64,000 nt of DNA, taken from sequence record MF327006; one strand, written 5' to 3'. Position 1 is the stretch's first letter. The number at the start of each line of letters is the position of its first letter. The stretch is from Shigella phage Sf20. Both the position numbers and the translations under genes were made by a program. The notes under the pieces were generated by a model. The model searched no databases, was not told where the DNA came from, and worked only from the letters and a program-made list of their open reading frames with translations. This document shows, one piece after another, positions 51,376 to 59,376 of this stretch.

Positions 51376-51400
51376 AAACGGGGCTTAACGCCCCCTTTTT
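51376..51400 (-). terminator. terminator-like hairpin GGGGC-ttaac-GCCCC between small gene and alt
   Basis: Hairpin at 51380-51394 flanked by A-run and T-run; same hairpin sequence recurs at 55644. Confidence 0.5.
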
Positions 51401-53494: not shown

Positions 53495-53742
53495 GCTGCC
53501 CCCATTGGTTTGATAGTAACAGAATCTAAAAGACCTTTGTTAGCCAGTTCGCGGCAAGTTTTCAGATCCGCAACTTCCCAACCAGCCGCAATCAGGTTAT
53601 CAATCAGGCTGTTAGCAACTTCTTCGCTCATGAAAGAGCACTGTTTGCCGATGGTGTAGCGTACACGCTGTAATTTCAGTTTACGGAAGCCTTTAACGTT
53701 CAGGTCTTTAGCGATTTTCTTTGCGGTTTCGATGTTAGCCAT
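53491..53742 (-). CDS. hypothetical protein, 83 aa (starts MANIE)
   Basis: First gene after cassette promoter 2; RBS AGGAGA; first 16 nt of CDS identical to the 70-aa gene at 51614. Confidence 0.5.
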   Translation of the reverse strand: MANIETAKKIAKDLNVKGFRKLKLQRVRYTIGKQCSFMSEEVANSLIDNLIAAGWEVADLKTCRELANKGLLDSVTIKPMGAA

Positions 53743-53782
53743 TGTTTGATTCTCCTAAGTGGTATCTCGTCTTGATGGTTGT

Positions 53783-53811
53783 ATTGTAGGGGAGTTATCC
53801 TCCCCTGTCAA
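53783..53811 (-). promoter_or_regulatory. PeSL-like cassette promoter 2: TTGACA - GGGGAGGATAACTCCCC - TACAAT
   Basis: Plus attgta 53783-88, 17-nt hairpin spacer, tgtcaa 53806-11. Confidence 0.55.
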
Positions 53812-53825
53812 CACTTTTTATAAAA

Positions 53826-53993
53826 TTATTTGTTAATTTCTGGTGCGTTGCTAGGATAGTAACCTTCTTTAACACCCAGATATTTTGCAACCATCCCTAC
53901 AATCTTCTGTGCTACTACAATGTCAAATTTCAGATAATCTTCGCCGTGGGTTTCAATGATATATGCTTCACATGCTGCTTTAGTCTCGAACAT
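53826..53993 (-). CDS. small hypothetical protein, 55 aa (paralog copy A)
   Basis: MFETKAACEAYIIETHGEDYLKFDIVVAQK..; about 85 percent nt identity by eye to copy at 57593-57760. Confidence 0.55.
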   Translation of the reverse strand: MFETKAACEAYIIETHGEDYLKFDIVVAQKIVGMVAKYLGVKEGYYPSNAPEINK

Positions 53994-54026
53994 TTTGATT
54001 CTCCTATTTCGTTTCGTTATGTGTGT

Positions 54027-54055
54027 ATTATAGGGGATCTCCCGATCCCCGTCAA
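54027..54055 (-). promoter_or_regulatory. PeSL-like cassette promoter 3: TTGACG - hairpin GGGATCGGGAGATCCCC - TATAAT
   Basis: Plus attata 54027-32, 17-nt hairpin spacer, cgtcaa 54050-55. Confidence 0.55.
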
Positions 54056-54069
54056 CAACTTTTTTAAAA

Positions 54070-54351
54070 TTATTCGTGATTAGTTTCGATGTTGTGCATT
54101 TTGCACCAGTTCAGCCAATCACCCAGATCCTGATAGTTAATGCTTTTATCTGCTGCCATCGTTTTTGTCTTGATACCCATATGTGCGTTATGAGTAAGCA
54201 TTTTTACAGTGAACTCAATTTTATCACCTTTAGCTTTAACATCAACCAGTTTGGTCCACTGGCTACCAGCGCCGCGAATGTTCATACCAACGATGTTTCC
54301 GATGTATGCTTCTTTGTTTTTCAGGATTTCGGTTGCTTTGATGAATTTCAT
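54070..54351 (-). CDS. hypothetical protein, 93 aa
   Basis: ORF starting directly downstream of cassette promoter 4 and conserved leader. Confidence 0.5.
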   Translation of the reverse strand: MKFIKATEILKNKEAYIGNIVGMNIRGAGSQWTKLVDVKAKGDKIEFTVKMLTHNAHMGIKTKTMAADKSINYQDLGDWLNWCKMHNIETNHE

Positions 54352-54384
54352 TTTTGATTCTCCAGTTCGTTTCGGTATGTGTGT

Positions 54385-54413
54385 ATTATGCTATGTTCTT
54401 ACTTTGGTGTCAA
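54385..54413 (-). promoter_or_regulatory. PeSL-like cassette promoter 4 (degenerate): TTGACA - N17 - CATAAT
   Basis: Plus attatg 54385-90, tgtcaa 54408-13; spacer not palindromic. Confidence 0.45.
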
Positions 54414-54421
54414 CAACTTTT

Positions 54422-54691
54422 TTAGATATTTTCAGAAATAAATTTTAAAACTTGACGTAAATGTTTCTCATCTTTGATAGTCGCCGGAAGTTCTTCTTTT
54501 ACTTCCTGTGCAAGATAGATATTTCCGTTCCAAGTGAAAGATCCGTCTTCGTTTACGCGATAGCTGAACATCCACTCGCAATCATTTTCGATTTCATATA
54601 CACACAGAAGGGTGTAATCGTTAAAGCTATTGATTTCAAGGTCGAAGCCGTGACGTTTTGCAAAGTTGGTAGTGGTTTTAGTCAGAGCCAT
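54422..54691 (-). CDS. hypothetical protein, 89 aa
   Basis: ORF downstream of cassette promoter 5. Confidence 0.5.
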   Translation of the reverse strand: MALTKTTTNFAKRHGFDLEINSFNDYTLLCVYEIENDCEWMFSYRVNEDGSFTWNGNIYLAQEVKEELPATIKDEKHLRQVLKFISENI

Positions 54692-54731
54692 TGTTTGATT
54701 CTCCTAAATGGTATCTCGTTTCGATGGGTGT

Positions 54732-54760
54732 ATTATGCTATAGGCCGGATCTGGTGTCAA
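54732..54760 (-). promoter_or_regulatory. PeSL-like cassette promoter 5: TTGACA - CCAGATCCGGCCTATAG - CATAAT
   Basis: Plus attatg 54732-37, 17-nt spacer, tgtcaa 54755-60. Confidence 0.5.
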
Positions 54761-54770
54761 TGCCTTTTTT

Positions 54771-54801
54771 AAAAAAGCCGACACTAAGGTCGGCACATTT
54801 T
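54771..54801 (-). terminator. terminator hairpin GCCGACACTAAGGTCGGC
   Basis: Hairpin 54777-54794 flanked by A/T runs, just downstream of stop at 54800; identical hairpin at 55279. Confidence 0.6.
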
Positions 54802-55111
54802 AAAAATTCTTGCTATATATGCAAGCCTCATAATCTAGAGGATGACCGCCAATCCTACCCGGCTTAATATTCCAACCGCATCGATATTTGCTGACCATGC
54901 TAACAGTTTCGGTTCTTAGAGCATTTCTTTGCAAATCATACCCCCTAAATTCTTGTCTATAAGGACAGTCCGCTTTGCAAGTTGGCGGTTCTACGTCATT
55001 TAGAGGGTCGGAAGCAGTTGGCTTTATTATCAATTCTTTGTTTGCAATAATCATAAGCACATCCCATTGAAGACAATTTAACATCTTCGCAATAAGTGTT
55101 GAATCCGTCAA
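54800..55111 (-). CDS. hypothetical Cys-containing protein; start uncertain (TTG at 55111, ATG at 55084 or 55054)
   Basis: 103-codon ORF whose 5-prime part overlaps the 63-aa ORF in another frame; possible frameshift or overlapping gene. Confidence 0.35.
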   Translation of the reverse strand: MTDSTLIAKMLNCLQWDVLMIIANKELIIKPTASDPLNDVEPPTCKADCPYRQEFRGYDLQRNALRTETVSMVSKYRCGWNIKPGRIGGHPLDYEACIYSKNF

Positions 55112-55187
55112 ACACGATCACTTCGTATTTGACTCCATCAGCGATAGCTTTTACTTTATACCATCCATGCTTGTATAAAATCTTCAT
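54996..55187 (-). CDS. small Cys-rich protein, 63 aa
   Basis: ATG 55187 with GAGGA RBS downstream of cassette promoter 6. Confidence 0.45.
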   Translation of the reverse strand: MKILYKHGWYKVKAIADGVKYEVIVFDGFNTYCEDVKLSSMGCAYDYCKQRIDNKANCFRPSK

Positions 55188-55219
55188 CTTTATTTCCTCG
55201 ATCTCGTTTCGATGGGTGT

Positions 55220-55249
55220 ATTATGCTATAGGCTAGACCAGGTTGTCAA
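55220..55249 (-). promoter_or_regulatory. PeSL-like cassette promoter 6: TTGACA - N18 - CATAAT
   Basis: Plus attatg 55220-25, tgtcaa 55244-49. Confidence 0.5.
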
Positions 55250-55271
55250 CAACTTTTTTAATTTTTTGGAA

Positions 55272-55300
55272 ATAAAAAGCCGACACTAAGGTCGGCTAAT
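55272..55300 (-). terminator. terminator hairpin GCCGACACTAAGGTCGGC (second exact copy)
   Basis: Hairpin 55279-55296 followed on minus strand by TTTTTATTT. Confidence 0.6.
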
Positions 55301-55304
55301 AAAA

Positions 55305-55613
55305 TCATTTAGACAAGTAATCATTCTGTGCAATACGGTCGGCGTATGCTGGTGTTATGTCAATCGCCAGCACTTTAACGCGTGCTTTCTTGCGACCTGG
55401 GTTTTCTCGTAACCAGTGCTCATGACCGTGAACATTTTTATACTTTGATGCTTCTTCAAATGTACGGATCGGACCTGGGTAATCAGCGTAAAGGATCTCT
55501 AGGTCTTCGGTGATGTAAAAATATACATCGTAATTACTGTTCTCTAGTTTAAGCAGAGAGTTGCGAAATTGTGGTAAATTCTCGCGGGTAAATTCAACTA
55601 CAAGATTTTTCAT
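55305..55613 (-). CDS. HxHW-family small protein, paralog A, 102 aa
   Basis: Signature YDVYFYITEDL ... HGHEHW ... VLAIDI; RBS GAGGA. Confidence 0.55.
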   Translation of the reverse strand: MKNLVVEFTRENLPQFRNSLLKLENSNYDVYFYITEDLEILYADYPGPIRTFEEASKYKNVHGHEHWLRENPGRKKARVKVLAIDITPAYADRIAQNDYLSK

Positions 55614-55639
55614 AGTGATATCCTCATTCAGATAGATTA

Positions 55640-55660
55640 AAAGGGGGCTTAACGCCCCGT
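55640..55660 (-). terminator. terminator-like hairpin GGGGC-ttaac-GCCCC
   Basis: Hairpin 55644-55658 downstream of stop at 55664. Confidence 0.5.
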
Positions 55661-55663
55661 ATA

Positions 55664-55951
55664 TTAAAACAGTCCTTCCTGTACACCGTAGTAGAGTTCA
55701 TCGCTGATAATTTCATTAATGCGACGGTGTGCATATTCCTGATTTGCGAAGTTATCAGCAAGTTCTACTTTAGTTTCGCCGTCATGAGTCCATTTAGTGA
55801 TAACTTTACCATCTGCAAATTTGAAGTTGAACTCTTTAGCTACTGCATCGCGTACCAGACGTGCGAACTTGTTGTTACGGATTGCATTATCGGTTTCGTG
55901 TGCAGCGTGAGCGAATTTGTTAACTTTCAGAGTGATAGTAATGTATGCCAT
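55664..55951 (-). CDS. hypothetical protein, 95 aa (paralog of the gene at 58978-59289)
   Basis: Shared segment LVRDAVAKEFNFKF vs EVRKALAKEFNTKI. Confidence 0.5.
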   Translation of the reverse strand: MAYITITLKVNKFAHAAHETDNAIRNNKFARLVRDAVAKEFNFKFADGKVITKWTHDGETKVELADNFANQEYAHRRINEIISDELYYGVQEGLF

Positions 55952-55997
55952 AATTTGATTCTCCTAGTTAGAAAGTGTATCTCGTTTCGATGGGGAT

Positions 55998-56026
55998 ATT
56001 ATGCTATATCCCCGATCCGGTGTCAA
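55998..56026 (-). promoter_or_regulatory. PeSL-like cassette promoter 7: TTGACA - CCGGATCGGGGATATAG - CATAAT
   Basis: Plus attatg 55998-56003, 17-nt spacer, tgtcaa 56021-26. Confidence 0.5.
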
Positions 56027-56032
56027 CACTTT

Positions 56033-56311
56033 TTATAAAATAATTTTTTGATATTTTTCTATGATGTTCGTGTAAGTCACATCAACCGCTAGCACCGTTG
56101 CTTCGAATCCACCGTTTAGCCAATGGCTATGATCATGATCGTGAAAGAAACCTAGACCAGTACGAAGACCTTCTTTATATTCTGCGCGTACATTCAGTTT
56201 GTCGTCGATAAACAGATAAAACCATGAATTTTTACTAGGATTGATGATACAACCTTTCAGATTAGGGAGAATATCACGACTAAGAATAAACTTATCACCT
56301 ACTTTGAGCAT
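56033..56311 (-). CDS. HxHW-family small protein, paralog B, 92 aa
   Basis: Signature WFYLFIDDKL ... HDHSHW ... VLAVDV; start at ATG 56311 with RBS GAGGAAAA (ORF-track extension trimmed). Confidence 0.5.
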   Translation of the reverse strand: MLKVGDKFILSRDILPNLKGCIINPSKNSWFYLFIDDKLNVRAEYKEGLRTGLGFFHDHDHSHWLNGGFEATVLAVDVTYTNIIEKYQKIIL

Positions 56312-56325
56312 AATATTTTCCTCAC

Positions 56326-56634
56326 TTATAAAGTTTGACCGTTGTTTTTCGCGTAATGCTGAATGCGTGCTTGATCTGCTTCCGCTGGTGATAGATTCCA
56401 TGCGATCACTACAACTTCTGACGCATCATGATCATTATCACTTACCCAATGATTATGATTCATACAATTGTTTGCTATCGCGTGAGCAAATGATCTCATT
56501 ACCGGAGACGTATAATCATAGTAACGGATTTTCAGATTTTCATCAACGTACAAGTAGATCGTATACGGCTTATATTCAGTAACCAGTAACAGACAGTTAC
56601 GCAATTCTGGGAAAATCTTTTTAGTTAATTTCAT
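56326..56634 (-). CDS. HxHW-family small protein, paralog C, 102 aa
   Basis: Signature YTIYLYVDENL ... HNHW ... VIAWNL; start at ATG 56634 (N-terminus MKLTKKIFPEL parallels paralog A). Confidence 0.5.
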   Translation of the reverse strand: MKLTKKIFPELRNCLLLVTEYKPYTIYLYVDENLKIRYYDYTSPVMRSFAHAIANNCMNHNHWVSDNDHDASEVVVIAWNLSPAEADQARIQHYAKNNGQTL

Positions 56635-56635
56635 T

Positions 56636-56866
56636 TTATAATCCTCGGTCGCGGCTATAGTAAACGGTACGCCATACAATTTCATGTTTCGTGTCGCTCC
56701 AGCACACGATCTCATTTACTCTTAAATCTTTGTTATCAACAAAAGATGAACATTGTGACGCTTCTTTCATCATTTTATCTGCTGTTTTCTCATCAAATAC
56801 AGCACAGATTTCTTTATACACTCGATAATCTTTGAATTGACTCTGAATACCCATAATTAACACCAT
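56636..56866 (-). CDS. hypothetical protein, about 76 aa (paralog of the gene at 56814-57077); start uncertain
   Basis: Shared segment FKDYRVYKEICAVFDEKTADKMMKEASQC vs FKEYKAYQQILRVYAPEFAEKMMEDASKC. Confidence 0.4.
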   Translation of the reverse strand: MVLIMGIQSQFKDYRVYKEICAVFDEKTADKMMKEASQCSSFVDNKDLRVNEIVCWSDTKHEIVWRTVYYSRDRGL

Positions 56867-57077
56867 TCCAACCAATTGTTTTTGAGAAAACGTTTATCCA
56901 CTGTTGAGTGTAACATGTTTCTTTCCATGATACAATACGAGTAGAATAATGGTTTTTGTTTCCAGAAAAGGACGGGCATTTTGATGCATCTTCCATCATC
57001 TTTTCGGCGAACTCTGGTGCGTATACTCGCAGGATCTGTTGATATGCTTTGTATTCTTTAAATTTGCTCATAATCAT
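56814..57077 (-). CDS. hypothetical protein, 87 aa
   Basis: ATG 57077; 3-prime end overlaps the start of the downstream paralog in another frame. Confidence 0.45.
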   Translation of the reverse strand: MIMSKFKEYKAYQQILRVYAPEFAEKMMEDASKCPSFSGNKNHYSTRIVSWKETCYTQQWINVFSKTIGWNGVNYGYSESIQRLSSV

Positions 57078-57336
57078 TCACTACCTTATCAGCTTCTTTT
57101 GTTGTTTTTACATCAACTGCGATAACTCGTAAAGGTTCGTCATGGTTCCACCAGTGGTCATGAATATCAGCTTGTGATTTATCACCAAAGGAATCACGAA
57201 TATCATTTTTACATTTATAGCTAATGTGACCTTCATAGTCAACATAAAGGTAATTATCGAAAATCGGCGTTTTTAAGATCATACCGAAAAATCTTTCTTT
57301 GTGTGTCTTATCCAGCGTTGCAGTAATTCGCATCAT
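57058..57336 (-). CDS. HxHW-family small protein, paralog D, 92 aa
   Basis: Signature NYLYVDYEGH ... IHDHWW ... VIAVDV; RBS AAGAGGA. Confidence 0.55.
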   Translation of the reverse strand: MMRITATLDKTHKERFFGMILKTPIFDNYLYVDYEGHISYKCKNDIRDSFGDKSQADIHDHWWNHDEPLRVIAVDVKTTKEADKVVNDYEQI

Positions 57337-57348
57337 AATATATTCCTC

Positions 57349-57528
57349 TTAGAAAGGGATGGTCATTTCTTGAGCTTGTACGTTCTCGTTAGGATTAAAC
57401 TTCATCCAGCCGATATTGTCTACCAGCATATGCACATTTTTATCATATCCTACGTGGGTAGTCAATACTGTATGTGCTTTACCTTCAATGATGAGTTCCA
57501 TGTACTTCTGAACTTCGATAGCTTTCAT
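57349..57528 (-). CDS. small hypothetical protein, 59 aa
   Basis: ATG directly after conserved cassette leader (GGAGAATCAAA-ATG); below ORF-track size cutoff. Confidence 0.45.
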   Translation of the reverse strand: MKAIEVQKYMELIIEGKAHTVLTTHVGYDKNVHMLVDNIGWMKFNPNENVQAQEMTIPF

Positions 57529-57560
57529 TTTGATTCTCCGTTTGTTGTCTTGATGGGAGT

Positions 57561-57589
57561 ATCTTACTACTCCCTTTAATCATTGTCAA
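57561..57589 (-). promoter_or_regulatory. PeSL-like cassette promoter 8: TTGACA - N17 - TAAGAT
   Basis: Plus atctta 57561-66, tgtcaa 57584-89; GGGAGTA..TACTCCC hairpin in leader. Confidence 0.45.
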
Positions 57590-57592
57590 CTA

Positions 57593-57760
57593 TTATTTGT
57601 TAATTTCTGGTGCGTTGCTCGGATAGTAACCTTCTTTAACACCAAGATATTTTGCAACCATTCCGGTGATCTTCTGTGCTACTACGATATCGAATTTCAG
57701 GTAGTCTTCACCGTGGTTTGCTACAATGTACGCTTCGCATTCTGCTTTAGTCTGGAACAT
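57593..57760 (-). CDS. small hypothetical protein, 55 aa (paralog copy B)
   Basis: MFQTKAECEAYIVANHGEDYLKFDIVVAQK..; ORF-track TTG extension trimmed. Confidence 0.55.
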   Translation of the reverse strand: MFQTKAECEAYIVANHGEDYLKFDIVVAQKITGMVAKYLGVKEGYYPSNAPEINK

Positions 57761-57794
57761 TTTTGATTCTCCTATATCTCGTTGGTATGTGTGC

Positions 57795-57823
57795 ATTATA
57801 GGGGATCGGTGATCCCCTGTCAA
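57795..57823 (-). promoter_or_regulatory. PeSL-like cassette promoter 9: TTGACA - GGGGATCACCGATCCCC - TATAAT
   Basis: Plus attata 57795-800, 17-nt hairpin spacer, tgtcaa 57818-23. Confidence 0.6.
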
Positions 57824-57828
57824 CAACT

Positions 57829-58122
57829 TTATAATGCTTTATATGCGTATTTCATAAATTTGTCTGCCACTTCATTGGCATGTTCAGATTCTACGCCTGA
57901 TTCGAGAACAATAGCTAGGTCGGTTTCGTCATTCCCGCCGTACCAATGATTTGATGTTCGATTTTTTTCAATTGGAAAGTGGTCACTTTTATCTGTGCGA
58001 CAAAATACATCTAAATGCTCGTCGATGTAAAAGATCCAATCTTCATAAAGAATAACGGTATTAGCAAGATTTTTATTGCCTTCAACGAAAGGTTCGGCTA
58101 CAAACAAATTAGTATGTTCCAT
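57829..58122 (-). CDS. HxHW-family small protein, paralog E, 97 aa
   Basis: Signature DWIFYIDEHL ... SNHW ... AIVLES; start at ATG 58122 with RBS GAGGAAA. Confidence 0.45.
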   Translation of the reverse strand: MEHTNLFVAEPFVEGNKNLANTVILYEDWIFYIDEHLDVFCRTDKSDHFPIEKNRTSNHWYGGNDETDLAIVLESGVESEHANEVADKFMKYAYKAL

Positions 58123-58138
58123 AGTATTTTCCTCAAAA

Positions 58139-58330
58139 TTATACAGCTTCGTAAACTTCCCAATGTCCAACACCAGCACGCTTAACGAAAAGGTTTTCTT
58201 TGATGTTATTCATAAACGTCTGGATGGATTTAATGCGGTTTGAAGGTTTCCATTCTTCGTTGGCATTGCGTCGATACATCATAACATTACCAGTTCGCTT
58301 ATATTCAGCAACCATTTTAAGACCACACAT
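58139..58330 (-). CDS. hypothetical protein, 63 aa
   Basis: ATG 58330 with RBS GAGGA. Confidence 0.45.
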   Translation of the reverse strand: MCGLKMVAEYKRTGNVMMYRRNANEEWKPSNRIKSIQTFMNNIKENLFVKRAGVGHWEVYEAV

Positions 58331-58387
58331 AATATTATCCTCAATTTGTGGGAGAGTATTACCCCTCCCAATGATTGTTATGTTATA

Positions 58388-58708
58388 TCACACAAAATGG
58401 CGTGTCAATGCTTCTTTTGCGGTTCCGCTAAGACTTTCGATCTCGCCTGGCATAACATCAACCGCCAGAACTTCTACAACATCCTCGGACCCTAACCAGT
58501 GAGTATGACCTTTGTAGAACTTGATAACCAGACTACCTTCCTCGTCCCATTTAACGCTATCGCTAGCCCACCACACATCACAGTCGATAAAGTTGATGTA
58601 AAGCACACTACGCCACATTGAATTAATTACTTTCAATATTGCGCCTTTCATCTCTTCCACGGTATGGTCTTCCATTTTGAAGACCTCACCTACCTGAACT
58701 TTTGCCAT
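58388..58708 (-). CDS. HxHW-family small protein, paralog F, 106 aa
   Basis: Signature VLYINFIDCDV ... GHTHW ... VLAVDV; RBS GAGGTGA. Confidence 0.55.
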   Translation of the reverse strand: MAKVQVGEVFKMEDHTVEEMKGAILKVINSMWRSVLYINFIDCDVWWASDSVKWDEEGSLVIKFYKGHTHWLGSEDVVEVLAVDVMPGEIESLSGTAKEALTRHFV

Positions 58709-58725
58709 TTAGTCACCTCTCTTTA

Positions 58726-58905
58726 TTACATAACAATCACGCCAGCCGTTGAAAGTTGATGTTTCAACTGAGCATTTTCTGCTACCGTCAAATCAATGAT
58801 TTCTTGTGACGCTGCAATCATATAGCCATTGGTGATATTGTTTTGCATCAGTTCAATGGTTTCTTCGTTGTAGCGGATTTTAGCGATGATTTCGTTGAAG
58901 TTCAT
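58726..58905 (-). CDS. small hypothetical protein, 59 aa
   Basis: ATG after conserved cassette leader; below ORF-track size cutoff. Confidence 0.45.
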   Translation of the reverse strand: MNFNEIIAKIRYNEETIELMQNNITNGYMIAASQEIIDLTVAENAQLKHQLSTAGVIVM

Positions 58906-58939
58906 AATTGATTCTCCTAGTTCGTTTCGGTATGTGTGT

Positions 58940-58969
58940 AGTATAGGGGAGTTTAACCTCCCCTGTCAA
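58940..58969 (-). promoter_or_regulatory. PeSL-like cassette promoter 10: TTGACA - GGGGAGGTTAAACTCCCC - TATACT
   Basis: Plus agtata 58940-45, 18-nt hairpin spacer, tgtcaa 58964-69. Confidence 0.5.
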
Positions 58970-58977
58970 CAACTTTT

Positions 58978-59289
58978 TTAAAGTTTTTCCATGATAACGG
59001 TCATAATTACATCTTCTGCGCGAGCGGTCAGATTATCAGCGTCAGCATGTGGGCGGTTGGTTGTTACAGAGATAACACCGTTGCGCACTGGTTTGATATT
59101 GATATCAAGATGATCCGCGAAACGTTCGCCAGTTACAGAATGAATTTTGGTGTTAAATTCTTTTGCCAGTGCCTTGCGAACTTCACGAATCAGGATAGCG
59201 TTTTTCAGTTGGTTCTCCGCGCTCATGGTCTTCTGGGTGTTCATGGTTCCGTCGAAGTCAATCATTGGCAGCGTTACGATGTATTTCAT
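58978..59289 (-). CDS. hypothetical protein, 103 aa (paralog of the gene at 55664-55951)
   Basis: ATG after conserved cassette leader; shared KEFN segment. Confidence 0.5.
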   Translation of the reverse strand: MKYIVTLPMIDFDGTMNTQKTMSAENQLKNAILIREVRKALAKEFNTKIHSVTGERFADHLDINIKPVRNGVISVTTNRPHADADNLTARAEDVIMTVIMEKL

Positions 59290-59334
59290 TTTTGATTCTC
59301 CGTTTAAGAAAGTGTGTTTCGTTTTGATGTGTGT

Positions 59335-59363
59335 AGTATAGGGGATACGTGATCCCCTGTCAA
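59335..59363 (-). promoter_or_regulatory. PeSL-like cassette promoter 11: TTGACA - GGGGATCACGTATCCCC - TATACT
   Basis: Plus agtata 59335-40, 17-nt hairpin spacer, tgtcaa 59358-63. Confidence 0.55.
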
Positions 59364-59376
59364 CAACTTTTTTGAA

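Follow-up and report, generated by a model that had tools for sequence, protein, structure and literature searches.

The window, a stretch of 64,000 nucleotides from Shigella phage Sf20 (MF327006), belongs by its sequence to a Krischvirus, an RB49/phi1-like T4-type coliphage. Its part from 53.7 to 59.4 kb is the ORF190–ORF211 hyperplastic region, in which small early genes lie on the minus strand, most of them behind their own PeSL, a cassette made up of sigma-70 promoter, stem-loop and a conserved leader that includes a Shine-Dalgarno sequence. The gene order matches RB49p190–p212 one for one, and nucleotide identity reaches 97% to RB49 (116354–123931) and 99.4% to vB_Eco_SAP. PeSL cassettes and mini-circles were already described for this locus (Arbiol 2010, PMC2839356; Comeau et al. 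2014, PMC4122927), and mini-circles of the ORF192 and ORF210 cassettes were detected by inverse PCR in RB49/phi1 infections and sequenced (PMC2839356). When the two papers and the Petrov 2010 review of T4-related genomes were searched by term, neither gene duplication nor paralogues nor gene conversion turned out to be discussed in them. Three gene pairs, ORF191/ORF205, ORF198/ORF210 and ORF201/ORF202, are listed in the table together with the cassettes around them.

Table. Paralogous genes, PeSLs and a hairpin in the hyperplastic region (positions in the window)
Feature	Position	Strand	Remarks
PeSL of ORF190, downstream of ORF191	53740..53823	minus	
ORF191 homologue (copy A)	53826..53993	minus	55 aa, phrog_8009
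PeSL of ORF191	53991..54067	minus	TTGACG-17-TATAAT, stem GGGGATC/GATCCCC, leader, Shine-Dalgarno GGAGAATC
Terminator-like hairpin just downstream of ORF198	55644..55658	minus	GGGGCGTTAAGCCCC followed by a T-run
ORF198 homologue	55664..55951	minus	95 aa, phrog_7474; predicted beta-alpha-beta-beta-alpha fold
PeSL of ORF198	55949..56038	minus	TTGACA-17-CATAAT; stem GGGGATAT/ATATCCCC around -10; leader element ACACTTTCT
ORF201 homologue (downstream tandem copy)	56636..56854	minus	72 aa, phrog_8471; 76 aa from alternative start 56866
ORF202 homologue (upstream tandem copy)	56814..57077	minus	87 aa, phrog_8471
Atypical PeSL of ORF204–ORF199 block, downstream of ORF205	57526..57596	minus	TTGACA-17-TAAGAT, stem-loop overlaps -10
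ORF205 homologue (copy B)	57593..57760	minus	55 aa, phrog_8009
PeSL of ORF205	57758..57835	minus	TTGACA-17-TATAAT, 12/12 consensus, G4/C4 stem-loop
PeSL of ORF209, downstream of ORF210	58903..58981	minus	second recombination partner for ORF210 excision
ORF210 homologue	58978..59289	minus	103 aa, phrog_7474; same cassette formed mini-circles in RB49/phi1 (PMC2839356)
PeSL of ORF210	59287..59375	minus	TTGACA-17-TATACT, G4/C4 stem-loop; leader element ACACTTTCT

A promoter scan gave matches of 11–12/12 upstream of ORF191, ORF205, ORF198 and ORF210, and no near-consensus site upstream of ORF201 or ORF202. On the minus strand, all 12 sites with at least 10/12 consensus positions are located at intergenic PeSLs, and none lies between ORF203, ORF202, ORF201, ORF200 and ORF199. 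Both 55-aa ORFs are preceded by a near-consensus sigma-70 promoter and a G4...C4 stem-loop, and each thus has the cassette promoter of its own that an initial annotation had assigned to it. These two PeSLs are 86% alike, and PeSLs in general up to 87%; as they are no closer to each other than other PeSLs are, joint copying of promoter and gene is not proven by them. The ORF190 PeSL and the atypical PeSL have the leader CCATCAAGAC in common. The leader element of the ORF198 and ORF210 PeSLs is unique to these two and travels with the genes, which fits a common cassette ancestor within the PeSL system. Terminator activity has been published for PeSL211/210. When the nucleotides from 51 to 60 kb were compared with themselves, similarity outside the PeSLs and terminator hairpins did appear off the diagonal, namely ORF191/ORF205 as a direct repeat of 172 nt (87%), besides a few chance-like repeats of 18–32 nt (66–83%).

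The initial annotation had proposed three duplicated gene families, and in each of the three the similarity greatly exceeds what chance would give. For the 55-aa ORF its estimate of about 85% nucleotide identity comes close to the 86.3% found over 168 nt. ORF191 and ORF205 are identical at 49 of 55 amino acids (89%, E 1e-37), both match phrog_8009 (E about 1e-38), and each is the closest known relative of the other, any further sequence reaching 83% at most. Among these are ORF191-like genes of the siphoviruses swi2, SeSz-2, D10, Pu29 and Bas81 (70–72% amino acid identity). A Ka/Ks estimate resulted in an omega of 0.07 (dS 0.75, dN 0.055), and the differences are unevenly distributed: 21 of 99 nucleotides differ in codons 1–33 (dS about 1.95, near saturation), as against 2 of 69 in codons 34–55 (dS 0.165; Fisher p = 5e-4). 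The 3' end may owe part of its low divergence to constraint; the motif KEGYYPSNA is also conserved in the siphovirus homologues. The family was found in 121 places in 70 matching records, of which 58 are RB49-like, and most Krischvirus records hold two copies. Orthologues of ORF191 are 98–100% identical in nine of 12 relatives and missing from Brandy, JK32 and MIZ4.

ORF198 and ORF210 both contain the motif VR.A.AKEFN.K by which a pair of about 100 aa had been recognised. Default BLASTP returned no alignment between them, and without composition correction just a 24-aa local match was obtained (E 6.6e-4, 27-sequence database), as would be expected if two unrelated ORFans shared the motif by chance. 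This is extremely improbable and was refuted by several results. Each of the two proteins matches phrog_7474 from end to end (E about 1e-43), and SP18gp146 of a Gaprivervirus bridges ORF198 (E 3e-15) and ORF210 (E 6e-13), covering about 90% of each. Out of 1.84 billion representative proteins, a profile search retrieved exactly three subfamilies, ORF198, ORF210 and SP18gp146, which are confined to two genera of T4-type phages of E. coli. The BFVD model of RB49 ORF210 resembles the predicted ORF198 model (TM 0.67, prob 0.99), and the shared leader element points the same way. The Smith-Waterman score of 55 compares with a shuffle mean of 26.2 +/- 4.7 and was reached in 0 of 1000 shuffles. Homology of this pair is thus confirmed. 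SP18gp146 is 45% identical to ORF198, and ORF210 about 33% in a MAFFT alignment, so the two copies may have split before Krischvirus arose, or one of them may be a separate acquisition.

ORF201 and ORF202 are adjacent and overlapping, the last 17 codons of ORF202 extending across the start of ORF201. The shared motif FK.Y..Y..I....KMM.(E/D)AS.C of an approximately 80-aa pair is present in both, 25 of 63 amino acids are identical (40%, E 9e-17), and both match phrog_8471. Nucleotide identity is just 53%, so a DNA dot-plot would miss this pair. The family occupies 117 places in 64 records, two in most Krischvirus records. ORF201 exists as two alleles 62% apart in amino acids among the relatives and is missing from JSE and KMB43. 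No PeSL was found between or beside the two genes, which lie inside a polycistronic block, and the pair therefore represents a plain tandem duplication. Recombination between promoter modules, initially named as the likely route of duplication, does not explain this pair. The members of the other two pairs are single-gene units with their own PeSL, and exchange between PeSLs demonstrably adds or removes such units.

Scars of recombination are found among the relatives. According to the synteny table, indels bordered by PeSLs with chimeric junctions occur in Brandy, JK32, MIZ4, Cognac and FL04. In Brandy and JK32, the 5' half of the ORF191 PeSL is joined to the 3' half and leader of the ORF190 PeSL (ORF193>ORF190), and the 5' half of the ORF210 PeSL to the ORF209 leader (ORF212>ORF209), with ORF210 missing from both genomes. 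MIZ4 has a chimeric PeSL at ORF193>ORF186 and lacks ORF191. From such a scar alone, loss and gain look the same. In the deposited assemblies of Cognac and FL04, ORF206 is followed by a single A-type copy and then ORF190, and ORF205 is gone together with ORF193–204. These are two independent deletions of 3.77 kb between the ORF205 and ORF191 cassettes, with the ORF205 PeSL as crossover partner in both; the crossover point falls between the B-type leader and nt 7 of the gene in Cognac, and within the stem-loop in FL04. Gene conversion between the two copies is visible as well: in Brandy_B six diagnostic sites in a row (nt 51–75) show the A state, as do three in KMB43_B (nt 69–75), and A and B copies share polymorphisms at nt 141 and 153. 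Highly divergent alleles (57–73% aa) of ORF201, ORF203, ORF206 and ORF200 exist in genomes otherwise about 95% identical, which shows that allelic replacement is frequent.

All three pairs are genuine paralogue families that are old on the scale of the genus; purifying selection maintains them, and in most relatives their positions are fixed. As both copies of each pair are under purifying selection, the ORFans are arguably functional. It was initially suggested that cassettes are being copied now, which would make the pairs young duplicates that are still diverging. The nearly identical 3' third of ORF191/ORF205 and the measurable frequency of PeSL mini-circles in infections (PMC2839356) would agree with this, but it is very unlikely and is contradicted for all three pairs. 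The dS of ORF191/ORF205 is 8–40 times that of the orthologues (0.02–0.10 in 12 relatives), even before codons 1–33 are taken by themselves; the synonymous sites of ORF201/ORF202 are saturated (pS 0.84), and the second and third pairs are down to 25–40% amino acid identity. The same two copies occupy the same positions in most of 58 relatives, and ORF191–ORF205 identity within one genome is constant at 87–91%. No third ORF191/ORF205 copy was present in the 58 matching RB49-like records, and neither a new, extra or near-identical copy of any pair nor an 'empty' PeSL at the ORF205 site was found in any genome compared.

A more serious, though still unlikely, alternative is that the copies are xenologues, each a related cassette taken up on its own from another phage through PeSL-mediated exchange in co-infection. 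These families do move between phages, as the siphovirus genes show, ORF198 is more similar to SP18gp146 than to ORF210, allelic replacement is frequent, and dS in the 5' part of ORF191/ORF205 is near saturation. However, ORF191 and ORF205 are mutual closest relatives, the ORF198 and ORF210 PeSLs share a leader found in no other PeSL, and ORF201/ORF202 are in tandem. The reading of three old, conserved paralogue pairs in a PeSL-shuffling region, with deletion and conversion between copies ongoing rather than fresh copying, is considered likely.

Under this preferred reading, the ORF191/ORF205 and ORF198/ORF210 pairs most likely go back to a cassette that was excised long ago as a mini-circle by recombination of two PeSLs and re-inserted at another PeSL, or alternatively to unequal crossing-over between PeSLs, and ORF201/ORF202 to a simple tandem duplication in the PeSL-free polycistronic block. 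Today, as the comparison with relatives shows, exchange between PeSLs removes or adds the ORF191 and ORF210 cassettes and leaves chimeric PeSLs, and recombination of the ORF205 and ORF191 cassettes deletes the intervening segment, which has happened twice with different junctions. Gene conversion homogenises the 3' third of ORF191/ORF205 and moves short tracts between the copies.

The locus has the genus, position and anatomy (TTGACA-17-TATAAT, G4/C4 stem-loop, leader, Shine-Dalgarno) in common with the PeSLs of RB49/phi1, where PeSL-flanked indels likewise occur and the reported crossover zones (from the Shine-Dalgarno sequence to -10, and inside the stem-loop) are those deduced here. Unlike in these accounts, the repeats in the window include coding sequence (ORF191/ORF205), which offers extra homology for deletion or conversion, and one pair (ORF201/ORF202) is independent of PeSLs. 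PeSL exchange appears to rely on the general homologous recombination of the phage, as discussed in PMC2839356; for recombination in T4, homology shorter than 50 bp suffices (Singer et al. 1982, as cited in PMC2839356). The Cognac and FL04 deletions and the Brandy_B and KMB43_B tracts are textbook outcomes of direct-repeat deletion and ectopic conversion at 86%-identical repeats; except that the repeats are composite, combining a regulatory cassette with an ORF, nothing fundamental distinguishes them from ordinary direct-repeat recombination. Integron cassettes are similarly small, mostly single-gene and dependent on promoter context; they leave as excised circles and insert again at a recurring site, and paralogous cassettes are frequent in their arrays as at this locus. 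However, the window has neither an integrase nor attC/attI sites, and every PeSL cassette has its own promoter.

DinI is the DNA-damage-inducible protein I of E. coli, a modulator of RecA filaments. The AF2 model of ORF198 (pLDDT 81.6) has a beta-alpha-beta-beta-alpha topology and may be superposable on DinI (1ghh/7ywa); it was built from a 5-sequence alignment, and MIF/tautomerase folds follow closely behind DinI in the fold comparison. Membership in the DinI family was not borne out by sequence: the ORF198 family had no match among Pfam profiles up to E 10 or in sequence and profile searches of the PDB, and hhalign against DinI gave E 0.16 over 10 columns. A DinI-like fold of the ORF198/ORF210 family is a weak side lead from modelling. 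It is a speculative and rather improbable idea that ORF198, ORF210 and SP18gp146 might be putative, very divergent DinI-like modulators of host RecA or phage UvsX filaments in early infection, present as two diverged paralogues on excisable promoter cassettes, and that the 3.8-kb ORF191–ORF205 block might be a facultative module flipping out at appreciable frequency in nature.

PeSL-cassette shuffling at this locus was already known, and the pairs add detail to the published model. They fit modular shuffling by PeSLs in T4-type phages and leave the current picture unchanged, as confirmation rather than discovery. For one ORFan family, the DinI-like fold would be a cheap experimental lead. The scars that the laboratory mini-circle experiments predict are present in natural isolates, Brandy and JK32 lacking the same ORF210 cassette, and the substrates of recombination are coding paralogues as well as promoter modules, with 3.8-kb deletions and gene conversion as the outcome.

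The three gene pairs of the hyperplastic region (see the table) had been described in the initial annotation as duplicated families, and this was borne out by BLASTP, PHROGs, a bridging homologue, and profile and model evidence. The copies of pair 1, ORF191 (copy A) and ORF205 (copy B), are identical at 49 of 55 amino acids (E 1e-37), share 86.3% nucleotide identity over 168 nt, form a 172-nt direct repeat (87%) and both match phrog_8009. In pair 3, ORF201 and ORF202 show 40% amino acid identity over 63 residues (E 9e-17) and both match phrog_8471, with a nucleotide identity of only 53%. For pair 2, no alignment between ORF198 and ORF210 was obtained with default BLASTP, and a local match of 24 amino acids appeared with composition correction off; the Smith-Waterman score was 55 versus 26.2 +/- 4.7 for shuffles, of which 0/1000 reached 55. 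Four independent results establish that this weak pair nevertheless consists of full-length homologues. Each protein aligns with phrog_7474 over its whole length (E ~1e-43), and tblastn with either one led to the same Gaprivervirus gene, SP18gp146, which aligns over ~90% of length with ORF198 (E 3e-15, 45% identity) and ORF210 (E 6e-13, 32%). A profile search with the pair 2 alignment, run exhaustively against 1.84 billion representatives, found as subfamilies only the ORF198-type, ORF210-type and Gaprivervirus-type clusters; the other hits were a variant with a frameshift and one repetitive protein that is probably spurious. Finally, among predicted structures, the BFVD model of RB49 ORF210 matched the ORF198 model made here (TM 0.67, probability 0.99). 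A DNA dot-plot of the region, in which similarity beyond the promoter cassettes had been anticipated, would display only pair 1 beyond these cassettes and the terminator hairpins; pairs 2 and 3 would stay invisible at this level.

Coordinates of genes and sequence elements in the window
Feature	Position	Strand
ORF191, pair 1	53826-53993	minus
ORF205, pair 1	57593-57760	minus
ORF198, pair 2	55664-55951	minus
ORF210, pair 2	58978-59289	minus
ORF201, pair 3	56636-56854 or -56866	minus
ORF202, pair 3	56814-57077	minus
ORF202 read-through across the ORF201 start	56814-56866	minus
ORF197, H.HW family	55305-55613	minus
ORF199, H.HW family	56033-56311	minus
ORF200, H.HW family	56326-56634	minus
ORF203, H.HW family	57058-57336	minus
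ORF206, H.HW family	57829-58122	minus
ORF208, H.HW family	58388-58708	minus
PeSL of ORF198	55949-56038	
PeSL of ORF210	59287-59375	
Atypical PeSL ahead of ORF204	57526-57596	
Possible degenerate PeSL	58380-58408	
PeSL copies with AAAAAGCCGACACTAAGGTCGGC hairpin	54711-54794 and 55199-55296	
ORF195/196-like cassette	54800-55187	
GGGGCGTTAAGCCCC hairpin downstream of alt/ORF186	51380-51394	
GGGGCGTTAAGCCCC hairpin downstream of ORF198	55644-55658	
Block with very divergent alleles	56033-58122	

The pairs are old duplicates held by purifying selection. In pair 1, 16 synonymous and 7 non-synonymous changes make up 23 nucleotide differences (dS 0.75, dN 0.055, omega 0.07), whereas orthologue dS against 12 relatives ranges from 0.02 to 0.10 for nine concatenated genes of the region. 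The differences are very unevenly spread along the gene (Fisher's test, p = 5e-4), with 21 in the first 99 nt (codons 1-33, dS 1.95) and 2 in the last 69 nt (codons 34-55, dS 0.165). Synonymous sites of pair 3 are saturated (pS 0.84, dN 0.55), and amino acid identity in pair 2 is ~25-33%. Two places each for pair 1 and pair 3 occur in most Krischvirus records. In 12 fetched loci, the copies lie at the same positions, with 96-100% identity among orthologues and a constant 87-91% between paralogues. No extra or near-identical copy was detected in any genome compared. The proposed ongoing copying of cassettes is contradicted by these dS values, by the shared positions and by the missing recent copies.

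At 53.0-60.0 kb, the window shows 97.1% identity to Escherichia phage RB49 (116354-123931) and 99.4% to vB_Eco_SAP, and the 58 phage records that matched belong to RB49-like (Krischvirus) phages, both coliphages and Shigella phages. RB49p190-p211 are annotated in RB49 as a run of small hypothetical genes that share a strand, with alt on one side and the HNH endonuclease/DNA ligase gene 30 on the other; in the window, the minus strand carries every gene of the region, ORF192 is missing as in phi1, and ORF211 is present as in RB49. Promoter-early stem-loops (PeSLs), consisting of a sigma-70 promoter and a stem-loop, were defined in hyperplastic regions including this locus by Arbiol et al. 2010 (PMC2839356), and inverse PCR identified mini-circles with ORF191-194, ORF192-193 or ORF210 that were made by recombination between PeSLs (PMC2839356).

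A consensus scan of the minus strand found 12 promoters with at least 10/12 consensus positions, every one in an intergenic PeSL. Class 1 PeSLs (TTGACA, a GGGG...CCCC stem-loop and TATAAT) precede ORF186, 190, 191, 205, 209 and 210, and class 2 PeSLs (TTGACACC...TAGCATAAT) precede ORF193, 194, 196 and 198; in both classes, a conserved leader and the Shine-Dalgarno sequence GGAGAATCAAA-ATG follow downstream. A single atypical PeSL precedes ORF204, 203, 202, 201, 200 and 199, which make up one block with no promoter cassettes between its genes. The two PeSLs located downstream of ORF191 and ORF205 have the leader variant CCATCAAGAC in common. In PeSL-to-PeSL comparison, the PeSLs ahead of ORF191 and ORF205 are not clearly each other's nearest neighbours (ORF191/ORF205 86% versus ORF191/ORF209 87%), so a joint duplication of promoter and gene cannot be proven from the similarity of PeSLs alone. 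Of the PeSLs, those of ORF198 and ORF210 alone contain the leader element ACACTTTCT; in 12/12 relatives, element and respective gene are either both present or both absent, and the element thus belongs to the cassette. It is absent upstream of SP18gp146, where a T4-type early promoter context is found. As it is conserved between genes whose proteins are only ~30% identical, the leader may be functional, with a possible role in translation or mRNA stability. Additionally, the 3' end of ORF208, upstream of ORF207, holds what may be a degenerate PeSL, made up of a promoter-like TTGACA-17-TAACAT and then the stem-loop GGGAGGGGTAATACTCTCCC.

Comparison of relatives indicates that recombination is ongoing in other forms, namely loss and gain of cassettes with chimeric PeSLs, deletion between paralogous cassettes, and gene conversion. 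ORF191 is absent in Brandy and JK32; in their single PeSL between ORF193 and ORF190, the ORF191 PeSL supplies the 5' half and the ORF190 PeSL the leader. ORF210 is also absent in both phages, with the 5' half of its PeSL fused to the ORF209 leader, mirroring the ORF210 mini-circle sequenced by Arbiol et al. (PMC2839356). In MIZ4, ORF193 is joined to the ORF186 PeSL, and ORF187-191 are missing. Cognac and FL04 have lost ORF193-ORF205 (3767 bp) and carry ORF206, then one ORF191-type copy, then ORF190. The Cognac junction has an ORF205-type PeSL and leader up to the Shine-Dalgarno sequence and an ORF191-type gene from nt 7, whereas in FL04 the switch lies inside the stem-loop; the different junctions suggest two independent deletion events, and the crossover zones agree with those reported for PeSL mini-circles (PMC2839356). 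At six diagnostic sites in a row (nt 51-75), ORF205 of Brandy shows the ORF191 state, yet this phage has no ORF191; ORF205 of KMB43 shows it at three sites (nt 69-75). Together with polymorphisms common to the A and B copies (nt 141 and 153) and a 12-fold lower dS in the 3' third of pair 1, these tracts point to recurrent exchange between ORF191 and ORF205.

As to how the pairs arose, the members of pairs 1 and 2 lie apart from each other as single-gene units, and every one of them has a PeSL of its own. An excised PeSL cassette re-inserted at another PeSL would give such dispersed copies, and unequal exchange between PeSLs might be an alternative route. For pair 1, a foreign circle integrating at ORF191 by a Campbell-type event was also considered and rejected, as this leaves unexplained the near-identical 3' third, which gene conversion accounts for. 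SP18gp146 is nearer to ORF198 than ORF210 is; the split of pair 2 may therefore be older than the genus, or one copy may have been acquired separately. No PeSL adjoins either ORF201 or ORF202, and pair 3 is best explained as an ordinary tandem duplication. Recombination between promoter modules, which had been put forward for all pairs, can thus be retained as the process moving the units of pairs 1 and 2, but pair 3 is independent of PeSLs.

The pair 3 junction is unstable. ORF201 exists as two alleles (62% at the amino acid level) and is absent in JSE and KMB43. The stop of ORF202 used in Phi1 and JSE (…KTLEWC*) is missing in the window, RB49 and SAP, where ORF202 runs on for 17 more codons, past the ORF201 start and in a different frame from it. 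This ORF202/ORF201 overlap is a junction of recombinant origin, linked to the ORF201 allele that diverges. Very divergent alleles were seen for several genes of the surrounding block against loci L008, L009, L011 and L013, including ORF203 (57% amino acid identity; Phi1, GEC-3S), ORF206 (69-73%) and ORF200 (53%; JSE, KMB43). As these genomes are otherwise ~95% identical, this indicates that the ORF200, 201, 203 and 206 alleles were replaced by exchange with unsampled relatives.

Other repeats were noted in the region. ORF197, 199, 200, 203, 206 and 208 form a six-member paralogue family with a common C-terminal H.HW...(V/I)LA(V/I)D motif and pairwise E values from 3e-15 (197/200) to ~1e-2, which PHROGs divides into five families. 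Two PeSL copies (91% identical), together with the exact 23-nt terminator hairpin AAAAAGCCGACACTAAGGTCGGC, flank an ORF195/196-like cassette that is absent in Phi1, JSE, G2494 and GEC-3S and is another repeat-bounded indel. The hairpin GGGGCGTTAAGCCCC occurs at two sites in inverted orientation, and its copy downstream of alt has T-runs on both sides and is terminator-like in both directions.

For none of the six paired proteins was a significant family found in Pfam or NCBIfam, and phrog_8009, phrog_7474 and phrog_8471 are of unknown function. A word-indexed search of a large database returned only 1-4 close relatives per query; with the pair 2 profile search, this leaves no sequence route to a named family. 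As all six lie behind early sigma-70-type promoters, they are presumably early accessory proteins. The AF2 model of ORF191 was poor (pLDDT 61.6, pTM 0.32) and was kept out of the fold search; at this low confidence, it would be a helical hairpin with a disordered tail that is strongly conserved. Unrelated siphoviruses, swi2 and SeSz-2 among them, have ORF191/205-like proteins (70-72% amino acid identity), and this gene family moves among unrelated phages, both coliphages and Salmonella phages. The 51-aa homologue in swi2 (L014 2001-2156; 72% over residues 1-50) stands alone at a divergent promoter region beside the terminase gene and conserves the C-terminal KEGYYPSNA motif. Within RB49 ORF210 (L001 9038-9367), 18 nt are duplicated in tandem and in frame (ERFADH ERFADH); this duplication is missing from ORF210 of the window and of other relatives.

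The region carries a system of a kind already known, namely the PeSL cassettes published for this very type locus, and the paralogy of the pairs is implicit in PHROGs. Gene duplication, paralogues and gene conversion were not mentioned in PMC2839356, PMC4122927 or the Petrov 2010 review of T4-related genomes, according to a term search. The present comparison puts numbers on how old the duplicates are, and it adds scars from natural phages, in the form of chimeric PeSLs at ORF191 and ORF210, two naturally occurring deletions between the cassettes of ORF191 and ORF205, and conversion tracts between these two genes.
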